Shown here one piece after another: positions 3,384-30,087 of a stretch of 64,000 nt of DNA. The DNA lies in IMG/VR virus record IMGVR_UViG_3300036766_000185, positions 1 to 64,000 of that record; one strand, written 5' to 3'. The notes beneath the pieces were generated by a model that was not told where the DNA came from, did no database searches, and worked only from the letters and a program-made list of their open reading frames with translations. Position 1 is the first letter of the stretch. The number at the start of each line of letters is the position of its first letter. The stretch is from a virus. Position numbers and translations under genes: made by a program.

Positions 3384-3968
3384 TTATCTCTCCTTAATGC
3401 ATGAACACGTAGGACAGTGCTTCATATCTATAGATCTAACTCCCGCGGGCTGCACTTTGTGCCAAAGTTCTAGATTCTCGATTCGATTGTCAGAACGAAT
3501 TCCGTTCTGATGATGCACATTCTCGTGGGGCAAAAGAGGGCGTCCTAACTGTTGCTCCATCATCAACCTATGCAGGGGAACGTATTTGCCGTTTATTCTG
3601 GTCTTAATATATCCGTAACCCGTGTCCACCAGGCCGTTCCCAAGTGTCCGTTCTCTCCAATCTTGAGGAAGACTCTCAAGAGGTTTTAAGCTCTGCCCTT
3701 TACGTTGCTGTGTCCAATGCCCGTTGCATAATGTATGCGCGATGGCGGGCTTAGAGCACCCTACAAAGCTGCACGATCTTCCAGAGTTTATTCTCCAACT
3801 GTTAATAGGTTTTAACTCATGCCCCGCTCGCAATTGATAAGCATGCGCGGGACATAGCAGGTAGTGAGTTGCGGGTCTATTGCACTCCGGACCTGTGCAC
3901 GTCTTTCCTTTGTTGACGCATTTCTTTTTCACGTCGTTTTCAGTTGCGTATAAGTAACTCAGAGCCAT
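3384..3968 (-). CDS. HNH homing endonuclease with two N-terminal Cys/His modules
   Basis: [37 protein letters not shown]; ATG at 3968 follows GGAGG. Confidence 0.9.
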
Positions 3969-4509: not shown

Positions 4510-6134
4510 TAGACTACCTCCGTCCAGTAAACTGTGATTACCGTATTACGATTATTGCTCAAAGGGTCGCCAGTTAGAAGCATTACATTACCTGGGTTGA
4601 TAACAAATAAAGCATCACCAATAACTTCGGTGCTATTCATGTTTTGTCCCGATTCATACCTAAAGAGGCTTGCCCCATTTGCTGTAATCGTCGGAGTCGT
4701 AAAGGTCTGAGAGATTGTCGCGGGATTTGAGGCTCCCCCAACATTTAGATTGACAGGGCTGATTGCTGTTCCATTTGCGGAGACCGTTGGGTTTGCAAAG
4801 ACTCTCCAAATACCTGAAACATTTGCTATCGTCAATCCGACATTGAGGCGAGTTATGCGAATTCGCTTTCCGCTTCCTATAGGATTCTTTAGTAGTAAAA
4901 CGGGATTAAAGGTTCCCGCCGTAGGGAGCGAAAAATCAAAAGCCAAACCAAAAGATTGTCCTAAATCAACGGCGGTAGCTGTGGATGACTGACTACTAAC
5001 TACGTTTACATCTAATGCTTGCTTTGTGCTAACAAGACTTGAGGTAATTGCATTTCCAGCACTATCAAAGAGTCCTCGAACTTGAGTTGTTAATTGTGTC
5101 TTAATTTGAGCCAGTGTTGCCTGAGTCGCAAAGTCCTTCCCCGCGAGTACCGCGAGAGTGGTCTGGGTGGCAAAGTCTTTTCCTGCAAGTGTCGCTAGGT
5201 TCCCGCCTTCTCTTGCTGGGTCGGCGGGGATTTTGTCTACGTCAGTCTTAATAAGAGCGAGTGTGGTTTCTGTTGCGAAATCTTTAGCCTCCAATGCCGC
5301 AAGTGTGGCTTCACTGGCTCTGGTGGAGAGCAACACATCTAGTTGGTCGCGCACCGATTGAACTTTCGCCTCTAGGTCATCAGTGTTGACTTCCAGGCTG
5401 TCGGTGTTATCAATAATCGACTGTAACTTGGCTTCTACGGTATCTAGTTCATCCTTGATTAAGGCAAGCGTGGTTTCTGTCGCAAAGTCCTCTGCCTCAA
5501 AGTCAGCCTTAATTGCAGCCAGGGTCGTTTCAGTGGAATAATCTTTGGCAATTAGTGTGTCTAGTTTCGCCTCAACCTCATCGACATTCAGGTTGATACT
5601 GTCCGCGTTCATGTTAATAGTATCCGCGTCCAGTCTAATTTCGGCGGTATTGGTAACAATGTCGTCGAGTTTAAGAAGGGCTGAATCTAAGTCTGCTTTT
5701 ACATCGAGTAGCGTCGCTTCAGTAGCAAAATCCTCAGCCGTGAACGTCGCTTCAGTAAGCAACGTCCCCAAAGTGGTTTCTGTGGCAAAGTCTTTACCTT
5801 CTAACGAAGACAACGTAGCTTCGGTGGCCAGCACGGACAGGTCTGTATCCAAATGTTGAAAGAGGGGTGTTAAATCTGCGCCTGTCTGTGCTGTCCCGCC
5901 CCATTTCTCTACATTCACGTCGGGGCTAACATTGATAACTGCATCTTCAACTACTAGCTCTGTATCAACCTTCAGGGCTAGTGTTCCGTCTCCTTGATCG
6001 GTTGATGCAATTGGTGCCCAGCCAATAATCTGTCCCGTACCATCAACTATAGGAAGACATAGACCTGCAAGTGATCGACCATTTCGATCAACGGGCAGAG
6101 CGGGAGGCTTGCTACCTGTTACGTCGTTAACCAT
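4509..6134 (-). CDS. Fibrous coiled-coil virion protein with DFATETTL repeats
   Basis: Many D(F/Y)(A/S)T(E/Q)(T/A)TL repeats; paralogue of 7002..8312; distinct beta-rich C-terminal domain. Confidence 0.7.
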   Translation of the reverse strand: MVNDVTGSKPPALPVDRNGRSLAGLCLPIVDGTGQIIGWAPIASTDQGDGTLALKVDTELVVEDAVINVSPDVNVEKWGGTAQTGADLTPLFQHLDTDLSVLATEATLSSLEGKDFATETTLGTLLTEATFTAEDFATEATLLDVKADLDSALLKLDDIVTNTAEIRLDADTINMNADSINLNVDEVEAKLDTLIAKDYSTETTLAAIKADFEAEDFATETTLALIKDELDTVEAKLQSIIDNTDSLEVNTDDLEAKVQSVRDQLDVLLSTRASEATLAALEAKDFATETTLALIKTDVDKIPADPAREGGNLATLAGKDFATQTTLAVLAGKDFATQATLAQIKTQLTTQVRGLFDSAGNAITSSLVSTKQALDVNVVSSQSSTATAVDLGQSFGLAFDFSLPTAGTFNPVLLLKNPIGSGKRIRITRLNVGLTIANVSGIWRVFANPTVSANGTAISPVNLNVGGASNPATISQTFTTPTITANGASLFRYESGQNMNSTEVIGDALFVINPGNVMLLTGDPLSNNRNTVITVYWTEVV

Positions 6135-28018: not shown

Positions 28019-28435
28019 TTAGAGTGTCGTTGCTTTATAGTATGTAACTGCCTTTTCATTTGCACATTGATCACAAAGGGTTTTAATCCAACCTGTATTT
28101 CGTTGCTTAACATTCTGAACGGTTCCGCATTTTTCACACACTCGTTCAGACATGTATTCAACCATTTGAATCATCGCTTGCTGCTTCTCGGTGGAGGAAT
28201 GCGTGTAGAAGCAGAGGCCTCCCCACTTTTCCTTGACCTGCGAAGCCACGACTTGCGGCTGCCAGTTATGTTTGATATCCCACTGTAGAGCCGAGCACAA
28301 TTCGTCTATGAGCCAATACCAACCATCGTTGCAGTCGAACCCCCAACACATCGCTGTCTCACTTACGCTTCCAAATCTCTGAGCGAAGATCTCTGGGTAT
28401 TTCTTTACAAGCTTGGCATCTAGTTCAGGAGTCAT
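28019..28435 (-). CDS. Conserved phage protein
   Basis: GWYWLI...QVKEKWGGLCFY...CEKCG...TLC motif common in phages. Confidence 0.7.
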   Translation of the reverse strand: MTPELDAKLVKKYPEIFAQRFGSVSETAMCWGFDCNDGWYWLIDELCSALQWDIKHNWQPQVVASQVKEKWGGLCFYTHSSTEKQQAMIQMVEYMSERVCEKCGTVQNVKQRNTGWIKTLCDQCANEKAVTYYKATTL

Positions 28436-28639
28436 TTTGTTTTTACGTCAAAGAAGACGCTCATTGTTAACAGCACGACAGATACAAGCAGAAACCACAT
28501 CAAATCGATCATTACGGAGCGCCATACTTTTTGAAGTACCAATAAACCAGCGCTTTGATTCCTACTAGCACTAGAACGACTATGACTATTAATTTTGGAA
28601 TATGCAGTTGTATGTTCATTTTTAGCTCCCAAAATTATT

Positions 28640-29180
28640 GTTGAGTTTGTAGCGGGCCGTTACTCTTCGCGAGGTTTTACGTCTGCCCATTCCTGGGACG
28701 CTAACGTTTATCAGACAGCTTGACTCAACTCGGCCAATATCTATGTTTGATCTACTCGCCGCTTTACCCTTCCATCACAAGTAACGGAGGGAGGTCTAGC
28801 AGGTTGCGGCTTTCGATCTAACCCGCCTCAACAGGCCACTCCTGTTTGTTGGCAGCAAGGAGAGTCTTTTTCATTTCAAGTGCTCTCTACTTTGTCCCTT
28901 GCGGGGAACACCCACTCACGTTGATCGGCTTTCCGCCTATGTGAGCCTGAGATTTACAGGGTCGTCTGTGGGCTTGAAGGAGAGTCCGTAGCGCTACTCA
29001 CTTCTCCAACAGTGTCCAGCAGATTTTATCTCAGTTTCCTCGTAGAGTCTTCAAGGTAAACTACGAGTTAGTAGCGCAATGCGACTGACTACGAGTGGTC
29101 TACACTCTGATTATCATTACCGGCTAGCTAGGCCGCTCCTAGTCACCAGCCAATCGCTTATAGGTTCAGCGCAAATTGTC
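28640..29180 (-). ncRNA. Large structured non-coding RNA candidate
   Basis: About 550-nt gap with no ORF in the track, containing at least 10 consecutive stems, GNRA tetraloops and long-range complements; strand inferred from GNRA loops, G-U pairs and gene context; ends approximate. Confidence 0.75.
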
Positions 29181-29187
29181 AAACGTC

Positions 29188-29385
29188 TTAATCTGGAGTT
29201 ACTGCAACGTCCTGTAACACTCCAGCGTAATTAGCTCGAAGATCGCTTCCAGTTCTCCAGCAATCACCATCGTGCGTATGTCCGAGCACATCGGATCCAC
29301 GATCTTGCAACTGCTTAAGATTCACTGTCACCTTGCGAGCCAGAGGCTCGATCAGTTTCTTCACTGTAGGTAATCCGTTATTCAT
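29188..29385 (-). CDS. Hypothetical protein
   Basis: GGAG RBS. Confidence 0.5.
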   Translation of the reverse strand: MNNGLPTVKKLIEPLARKVTVNLKQLQDRGSDVLGHTHDGDCWRTGSDLRANYAGVLQDVAVTPD

Positions 29386-29412
29386 CTAATGTGTATCTCC
29401 CTTCAAACTATA

Positions 29413-30087
29413 TTAAGCACTAGTAACAAGCTTCCAACTCGGAGTCGCTTTGCTTCCGCCATTCACGTACAGCTTTCCAGCCGAACGATCAACGCAAATC
29501 GAGCCAACCTCTGCCGTCCCAGCCCCTACTGAACTATCGGGGACTCCAGCGTTGCTCAAAAGACAGACCTCGTGCGACATTCGAACATCAGCTTTCAAAA
29601 TAGCCAGTGCGAGATAGCTATCGTGTGCTGCGCCGTGTAGATCAACGCCAAAGTCAAATCCTGACCCTGGGCTACTGTTGTTCGACATAGCTTTGAAAGC
29701 TGCGTTAGCTTTAGTAACTCCGCTATCCCCATCAATTACTGCTACAACTGCGCCGTCCGCAGCAGTAACGGTGTCCATAATCAGACCTAGAACAGCCCCT
29801 GTCGGATAGGACGTAGCCTTAGCTCCAGTAATCGAATATGCTCCAATAAGTCCAGCTAAGTAGTTAGCATCCTTAGTCAAACTGTCACCGAGAACGTTCC
29901 CCATGACAGCAGCGAGGAATTTAGGGTCTCCGCCGTCAGCACTACCTGCATCCGCTCCTAGGCTCAAGTCGGGAGCGATAACTTGGAATGAACTAGCGTC
30001 AGAGTAATCCTCTCCAGAACCCAAGAGCGCTCCAGTAATTCTCAAGTCGCCTACCCATGTATTGTCTGGTGAATTGTTCAGACCCAT
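29413..30087 (-). CDS. Long paralogue of the capsid decoration protein
   Basis: Start MGLNNSPDNTWVG at 30087 matches MALNNSPDNHWVG of 10055..10258; similar C-terminus. Confidence 0.7.
   Translation of the reverse strand: MGLNNSPDNTWVGDLRITGALLGSGEDYSDASSFQVIAPDLSLGADAGSADGGDPKFLAAVMGNVLGDSLTKDANYLAGLIGAYSITGAKATSYPTGAVLGLIMDTVTAADGAVVAVIDGDSGVTKANAAFKAMSNNSSPGSGFDFGVDLHGAAHDSYLALAILKADVRMSHEVCLLSNAGVPDSSVGAGTAEVGSICVDRSAGKLYVNGGSKATPSWKLVTSA

Follow-up and report, generated by a model that had tools for sequence, protein, structure and literature searches.

The DNA considered here, referred to below as the window, is the first 64 kb (positions 1 to 64,000) of a complete 96-kb genome of an uncultured phage in IMG/VR (record IMGVR_UViG_3300036766_000185). 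All likely real genes of at least 120 amino acids (aa) in the window lie on the minus strand. A gap free of open reading frames (ORFs) at 28620-29187, in the late region, is the sole non-coding stretch of at least 150 nucleotides (nt) on this coding strand, and when minus-strand ORFs of at least 35 aa are counted, no internal gap of that size other than 28633-29187 (555 nt) occurs in the 64 kb. A terminase and a papain-like protease are encoded upstream of this region. The gap is bounded upstream by p65, a 65-aa ORF (29188-29385, minus strand; stop TAA at 29190-29188), and downstream by a gene for a 35-aa hydrophobic peptide (28512-28619, minus strand), whose ATG at 28619 is preceded by a ribosome-binding site (RBS), GGGAG. 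A first-pass annotation made from the sequence alone had pointed to a long stretch without ORFs amid the dense coding of the late region, and the ORF map of the window bears this out. The gap is non-coding. TAA, TAG and TGA each occur in all three of its minus-strand frames, so that no stop reassignment opens it, and tblastx against all fetched relatives found no decayed gene; an alternative genetic code and a decayed gene were rejected on these grounds. Comparison among phages shows that the first ~100 nt of the gap (29074-29172, minus strand) are a single copy of an RNA module that is restricted to phages and has a defined predicted tertiary fold. The proposal of a structured non-coding RNA of a new class on the minus strand is thus supported for this 5′ portion only.

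The complete module is delimited by a covariance model and a closing stem, with a core at 29169-29079, and all of its features are on the minus strand. The window matches the covariance model at 29079-29169 over model positions 1-89 of 89 with 74.2 bits (E 3e-14), a match that is partly by construction because the window sequence is in the model seed, and which ranks eighth of 81. It is the only copy in the window's genome, and the p65 stop lies 15 nt ahead of the closing stem (29172) and 18 nt ahead of the covariance-model match (29169). Read 5′ to 3′, the family architecture is UGAA-[CYYA]-UAA, the 5′ strand of helix P1 (~10 nt), G-GUGAC-[URRG]-rK, hairpin Pa, (G)UAAnGrUA, hairpin Pb and the 3′ strand of P1, with helix lengths of 10-11 bp for P1, 4 bp for Pa and 5 bp for Pb. 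In the window, the closing stem GCGC/GCGC pairs 29172-29169 with 29077-29074, and the 5′ strand UGAA-CCUA-UAA (29158-29168) follows, its CCUA (29164-29161) being the 5′ half of the pseudoknot. Helix P1 (29081-29157), formed by GCGAUUGGCU (29157-29148) and AGUCAGUCGC (29090-29081), encloses a three-way junction. Here the junction strand GUGAC-UAGG (29138-29146) contributes UAGG (29141-29138), which pairs with CCUA to give the 4-bp pseudoknot, while a second junction strand, GUAAUGAUAAUCA (29108-29120), carries the conserved UAAnGrUA, here reading GUAAUGAUA, between the two hairpins. Hairpin Pa (29121-29135) has a 4-bp stem CGGC/GCCG and the loop CUAGCUA; hairpin Pb (29093-29107) is GAGUG-UAGAC-CACUC, with a 5-bp stem, and its loop UAG can kiss CUA of the Pa loop, a contact of only 3 bp in the window. 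Pb is the one stem that the first-pass annotation had drawn by eye and that coincides with the conserved fold. Homology redistributes the strands of another of its hairpins, GGCUGG..CUAGCC (29122-29151), which is not part of that fold: GGCU goes to P1, UAGG to the pseudoknot and CGGC/GCCG to Pa. A direct repeat, UGCGC, flanks the module (29173-29169 and 29078-29074, minus strand). As GCGC is palindromic, this repeat also forms the closing stem, and it may alternatively be a target-site duplication left by insertion.

The family was reached from related phages in which the gap occupies the same place. Alignment of three of these, L003, L004 and L110, with the window revealed a shared short 5′ element, CUGAACCUAUAAG...GGUGACUAGG, which is unique in the window and thus not a reiterated promoter. 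A promoter-like pair within this region, TTGACA...TATAAG (29181-29157), was likewise rejected, having a 14-nt spacing, lying within the conserved RNA and occurring once in the window. Relatives were collected through a neighbouring 242-aa protein, giving eight IMG/VR loci and 15 metagenome loci, the latter with one new module-bearing phage (L110). A scan of IMG/VR with the pattern GAACCTATAA-N(5-30)-GTGACTAGG returned 44 stretches, and a looser pattern 89. A covariance model built from 60 sequences then gave 81 matches on the fetched loci, 63 of them distinct, almost all from uncultured phages. The module is near constant in size (84-95 nt), while its carriers range from contigs of <10 kb to 560-kb jumbo phages and its GC content from 34 to 66%. 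The same narrow pattern, run over 185,579 species-representative prokaryote genomes, matched six times, with one true member on a 4.4-kb contig of a metagenome-assembled genome; the other five are chance or coding matches, three of them, by our reading, in a conserved GxGxxG-type coding segment. With a single true prokaryote member, the family is essentially phage-restricted. Searches of 50,697 cultured-phage records by BLAST with the gap, the 5′ module and a compact relative gave no match. A cultured carrier, Sinorhizobium phage Phosso, was reached instead via its tail-sheath protein and then the covariance model (54.7 bits); in this phage of Sinorhizobium meliloti the module (PV764938.1 288298-288387) lies in an unannotated gap after the sheath gene. 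L003 (IMGVR_UViG_3300019458_000003, 95 kb) has two diverged copies ~880 nt apart (4621-4710 and 5502-5589), with pseudoknots CUCA/UGAG and CCUA/UAGG and a 97-aa ORF between them; the first ~20 nt of copy b are identical to the window's copy.

The fold is carried by compensatory change. All four positions of the CYYA/URRG pseudoknot are paired in 63 of the 63 distinct sequences, with 26 and 3 double changes at its two variable pairs and the variants CCUA/UAGG, CCCA/UGGG, CUCA/UGAG and CUUA/UAAG. RNAalifold finds this helix unprompted. In the model-derived alignment, to which the pseudoknot was added by hand, 84.8% of cells are paired as against 56.6% in shuffled alignments, and the covariation score is 0.719, compared with 0.205 for shuffles (reached by 0 of 500) and at most 0.158 when the partners are slid by 1-3 columns. 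P1 shows compensatory double changes at all ten of its pairs (85.7% of cells paired), and Pa at all four (95%). Complementarity between the Pa and Pb loops averages 3.08, a value that none of 1000 permutations of the partners attains (mean 2.41 ± 0.08), and the loop pairs vary together (UGCCA/UGGCA, CACUA/UAGUG, CGCUA/UAGCG, ACCA/UGGU), which supports a predicted kissing contact between the two loops. In Phosso this contact would be a 6-bp kiss, UUUCUA/UAGAAA by our reading. UAAnGrUA lay outside the search pattern, yet its A, A, G, U and A are 95-100% conserved. The closing stem also covaries among four related phages (GCGC/GCGC, GUAGA/UCUAC, UCUC/GAGA and CUGUC/GACAG).

Searches of Rfam and of the literature gave no counterpart to this arrangement. 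Rfam 15 (4227 covariance models) has no match in the window at gathering thresholds, and with permissive filters and E<=10 the region 28300-29500 gives only two chance-level matches to eukaryotic RNAs. On 20 member loci, nothing in Rfam lies at the motif positions except a chance-level match to MicX (E 0.31), and the ribozyme and riboswitch models do not match the module. Literature searches with the motif strings and by topic returned no description, with the proviso that a 2023 survey of structured RNAs in IMG/VR may include the motif unnamed (PMC10690425). The predicted module fold is thus a new RNA family, absent from Rfam and from the literature found, and we rate it as a new cargo fold within a known kind, the phage stable or tRNA-framed structured RNAs.

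The module is found in several genomic settings, in each of which its strand is that of the neighbouring genes. Every member inspected has its own closing stem around the module, and in nearly all other phages it stands alone at ~90-190 nt including this frame. Many members have a small hairpin ahead of the module and, behind it, a second hairpin of 5 bp with a loop of 6-7 nt. The result is a cloverleaf in which the two hairpins take the places of the D arm and T arm of a transfer RNA (tRNA) and the module that of the anticodon arm, as in L046, L082 and Phosso. The plain minimum free energy (MFE) fold of Phosso is a textbook cloverleaf (z -2.8), and L050 and L056 have a true tRNA-like acceptor stem and T arm. 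Several members in tRNA arrays are enclosed by a long clamp, UGUGUUUCAAUAUGG/CCAUAUUGAAACACA. In the window's clade the frame is no more than a stem of 4-5 bp; the window itself has 4 bp and neither of the hairpins that resemble a D arm and a T arm in the complete cloverleaf. Among 62 distinct members outside the window, 23 (37%) have tRNAs within 1.5 kb, all of them on the same strand as the module. In large myoviruses the module lies beside the tail sheath gene (phrog_10581; ~16 loci) or the tail tube gene (phrog_4542; 14 loci), in some loci between the two. At five loci a DNA polymerase gene (~820-890 aa) starts 28-33 nt after the module, with a ParB-like gene upstream. Clustering of the neighbouring genes found no constant companion protein family.

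T4 species 1 and 2 RNAs (rnaC/rnaD) and the T5 stable RNAs are non-tRNA structured RNAs that are co-transcribed with phage tRNAs. Compared by description only, they likewise end in stems or tRNA-like structures open to recognition by processing enzymes, but unlike these RNAs of tRNA clusters, the module also sits between protein genes. YrlA (RF02553) likewise has a tRNA-like frame with another functional element at the anticodon-arm position. In the tRNA-scaffold expression system of Ponchon and Dardel, a cargo RNA placed at the anticodon-arm position is reportedly stable and processable; that scaffold is engineered, whereas the module's arrangement is natural and is reduced to a 4-bp stem in the window. 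Two further RNAs were observed close to module copies. In L024, a tmRNA (899-1278; tag ANDEVYALAA by ARAGORN) lies in a phage tRNA array a few hundred nt from the module, and fits the permuted-tmRNA model (116 bits) and the beta-proteobacterial tmRNA model. On the 8.5-kb viral contig L088 (IMGVR_UViG_3300037830_000019), a full-length bacterial class A RNase P RNA (3400-3695; 185 bits, gathering threshold 100) is found with a tRNA 0.5 kb ahead of it and a module copy 1.2 kb behind it, and is either phage-encoded or part of a misclassified bacterial fragment.

We favour, at about even confidence and with much of the weight carried by the part that comparison has established, the reading that the module is an autonomous RNA domain, excised or embedded, that binds a factor common to diverse hosts. 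It would be a functional domain in itself and not a leader tuned to one gene. Transcription would take place within a highly expressed polycistronic RNA, here the late transcript and elsewhere tRNA operons, sheath/tube operons or a polymerase leader, after which the module would stay embedded or be cut back as far as its closing stem, leaving a stable small RNA. The conserved junction pocket may then bind a translation or RNA-processing protein, or a small molecule, that is common to very different hosts. The basis for this reading is the own stem kept in every setting, the tRNA-like or clamped frames typical of substrates of processing enzymes, the placement in highly transcribed units, and the same junction sequences across phages of very different size and GC content.

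Several points weigh against this reading. The binding partner is pure inference, and the sole protein lead, Ro60-like genes, is present in only nine of the 49 motif-bearing records. Members were gathered with a pattern, TGAACYYATAA...GTGACTRRG, that contained the UGAAC and GUGAC anchors, so that the invariance of these anchors is partly by construction, and the family may be wider than the pattern shows, as Phosso has GUCGAC in place of GGUGAC. The alignment used (A5) was fitted to the model, which favours P1, Pa and Pb; the pseudoknot and the kissing loops are outside the model. The listed sequencing runs with the phage are two DNA runs from sediment metagenomes, one of them probably the source sample, with no RNA run among them. 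The remainder of the gap has at most one relative by sequence comparison. Finally, the covariation-supported module itself scores z -0.84, its MFE being no better than that of shuffles. The first-pass annotation had proposed such a comparison with dinucleotide shuffles for its whole candidate, and there too the 541 nt do no better than chance (z -0.82 for the minus strand, -0.73 for the plus strand), an outcome that on its own terms would speak against the RNA; among 120-nt windows of the gap only 28740-28859 beats shuffles (z -2.3). Because a module with overwhelming comparative support scores only z -0.84, the folding-energy criterion is uninformative.

A related proposal, which we hold tentatively, is that the ~90-nt module represents a new catalytic or ligand-binding class. 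It could be a self-cleaving or processing ribozyme, or else an aptamer made in bulk to bind a molecule that is conserved in hosts, such as a translation factor or a nucleotide of immune signalling or stress. The same tentative proposal includes three interchangeable formats, namely a tRNA-like cloverleaf, a tail-operon spacer and a polymerase leader, together with a longer, still-evolving non-coding RNA in the window's clade.

Taken separately, a role for the module in cutting polycistronic transcripts between genes or tRNAs, whether as a new class of self-cleaving ribozyme or as a site of structure-specific processing, seems unlikely. The module is small (~88 nt), combines a pseudoknot with a three-way junction and a loop-loop contact, has ~20 near-invariant junction nucleotides, and is phage-restricted and always placed between co-directional genes or tRNAs, all of which would suit such an activity. 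Hammerhead, twister and hepatitis delta virus (HDV)-like theta ribozymes have a similar genomic lifestyle. Theta ribozymes adjoin phage tRNAs (PMC10879173). However, the module usually lies inside a 5-17-bp closing stem or a tRNA-like frame, so that fragments from a cut within it would remain held together by pairing. The Rfam ribozyme models give no match, the junction strands by our comparison are unlike the hammerhead, hatchet, pistol, twister and HDV cores, and a cleavage site cannot be inferred from the sequence.

It is improbable that the module, or in the window the whole gap, is a cis-acting leader for the downstream genes (in the window those of the 35-aa and 26-aa membrane peptides and p138), whether riboswitch-like, a protein-binding operator or an mRNA-stabilising structure. 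In 39 of the 62 distinct members, where no tRNA is nearby, the module comes shortly after one ORF and before the next, and the five loci with a closely following DNA polymerase gene fit a leader. By our comparison, the build also resembles that of the purine-riboswitch aptamer (RF00167), in that both have a closing helix, conserved strands joining a three-way junction, and two parallel hairpins in loop-loop contact. The junction sequences and lengths differ (about 13, 10 and 0-3 nt), the module has an extra 5′ pseudoknot, and Rfam gives no match. The same module is present in tRNA arrays and tRNA-like frames, where there is no gene to control. The distance to the next start codon varies from 0 to about 450 nt, and the downstream genes are wholly different between contexts. 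In the polymerase loci the RBSs are, by our reading, not sequestered by the closing stem, and no terminator follows the module.

The remainder of the gap bears on whether the whole is one molecule. Next to the module, a second segment, module 2 (28865-29037, minus strand), which includes GGACACUGUUG..GAAGUGAGUAGCGCUACG..UUCAAGCCC and a GNRA hairpin, shows lineage-specific conservation: its ~170 nt recur in just a single related phage of 94 kb, L004/L040 (nhmmer E 4.5e-10; 59 nt at 85% identity). That the similarity to L004 extends over all six frames agrees with conservation of a non-coding kind. The two sequences available have a few compatible helices in common, including a GCCC...GGGY enclosure and the GNRA hairpin; the latter corresponds to the GCAA-tetraloop stem at ~28893-28910 that the first-pass annotation had picked out, kept as CCCC-GAAA-GGGG in the sole relative sharing that part. 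The pattern GAAGTGNGTAGCGCTAC, taken from module 2, found in IMG/VR the known relative and one match inside a long ORF. What remains, 28620-28864 (minus strand), ends in the RBS GGGAG before the ATG at 28619 and has no relative in any of the loci, the whole genomes of related phages or the metagenome loci; aligned to the L004 extension, these last ~245 nt score at chance level. L003, L004 and L110 have extensions that for the most part bear no relation to one another. These comparisons support the view that the remaining ~450 nt are a fast-evolving, lineage-specific non-coding extension or the leader of the small-peptide genes.

That the whole ~550 nt form one large "ornate" RNA of the GOLLD or ROOL kind, or a permuted relative, with the module as its 5′ domain, is quite improbable. 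The gap is unbroken by ORFs and by promoter-like or terminator-like sites on its minus strand, the gap of L004 is long as well (about 410-660 nt), begins with the module and shares ~170 nt more, and in L110 about 195-350 nt follow the module. GOLLD (RF01998) and ROOL (RF03087) are likewise phage-associated structured RNAs with no known protein partner, and many of their genes adjoin tRNAs, like 37% of the members of the new family. They measure 580-800 nt, against ~90-190 nt for the conserved unit here. Even at E<=10, Rfam gives no match to any large RNA, GOLLD, ROOL and OLE included, and nothing for RNase P, tmRNA or group I/II introns, the other families for which a search had been suggested. 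In nearly all other phages the module, which has a closing stem of its own, occurs by itself, the extensions of four related phages are mostly unrelated, the last ~245 nt are without a relative in the searched sequences, and no tRNA is adjacent. On this last point the first-pass annotation was correct: ARAGORN finds no tRNA or tmRNA in the window, and the genome has a single tRNA-Arg at 74370, 45 kb away. Its impression of a GOLLD-like RNA is not supported, since the central AUCUCAG has no conserved counterpart in addition to the missing Rfam match and tRNA. As a hint only, L110 by our reading has CUGAGAC and GUCUCGG ~100 nt apart, comparable to the CUGAGAU/AUCUCAG pair suggested for the window. 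Of the single ~540-nt RNA that had been envisaged, the first ~100 nt are supported as a folded RNA, and one molecule over the whole length is improbable.

The Ro60 lead arises from Phosso and four related uncultured jumbo-phage loci, in which a Ro60 gene (TROVE and vWA domains) lies 0.8-1.9 kb downstream of the module on the same strand. TROVE occurs in seven of the 49 motif-bearing records and DUF2828 in two, each being found in one of the 12 records that are at least 90% complete, and neither is present in the window's complete 96-kb genome or in the complete genomes of L003 and L004. That the module is a Y-RNA-like partner of the phage Ro60 (TROVE) ring protein is very improbable: the gene lies near the module in these five loci and bacterial YrlA Y RNAs also join a tRNA-like frame to a protein-binding stem, but Ro60 is missing from most carriers, the window genome, L003 and L004 among them, which makes the link at best lineage-specific, the Ro-linked loci share one synteny and may count as a single event, Agrobacterium phage Atu_ph07 has a Ro gene near which the motif was not found, and the Rfam YrlA model does not match the motif. 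The Atu_ph07 gene (MF403008.1 93591-95246; L125:8134-9789) is a coding sequence annotated as "Clp protease-like protein"; its product is 49% identical over 529 residues to Phosso Ro60, so the annotation is probably wrong. In L082, L094, L095 and L098, a further conserved non-coding stretch lies between the cloverleaf and the Ro60 gene (~0.8 kb), reading UAArGUG..CGAGG, a hairpin and CUCyAGGAGU, and may be another Ro60-linked RNA.

Downstream of the gap in the window, the gene for the 35-aa peptide is followed by one for a 26-aa hydrophobic peptide (28432-28512, minus strand), which overlaps its stop, and then by the 138-aa gene p138 (28019-28435, minus strand). The two peptide genes (28432-28619) share one base (TAATG), and the second overlaps the p138 start (ATGA). 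A mechanically called 66-aa ORF with a TTG start (28432-28632) is probably not a real gene. The p138 protein has two CxxC pairs and no family match; it recurs in the related phage L003 (6297-6716) and also in L038 (30-413), an unrelated phage with a tRNA array, where the module is also present, 11 kb from the p138 gene. The closest relative of the window's phage, L002 (82% identity), is without the whole block of p65, the RNA, the small peptides and p138, which indicates that this block is an insertion island.

For annotation, these results mean that the largest "empty" stretch of the phage's late region is no missed gene. The comparative support for the module is unusually strong for a phage RNA, in that both the pseudoknot and the kissing loops are reached via covariation. 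Its spread over very different phages and three genomic settings suggests that the module is a self-sufficient RNA device whose target is conserved from host to host. Judging by the tRNA-shaped frames, phages may stabilise a cargo RNA by means of a tRNA scaffold, as the laboratory method does, and with Phosso as a cultured carrier the role of the module becomes directly testable.

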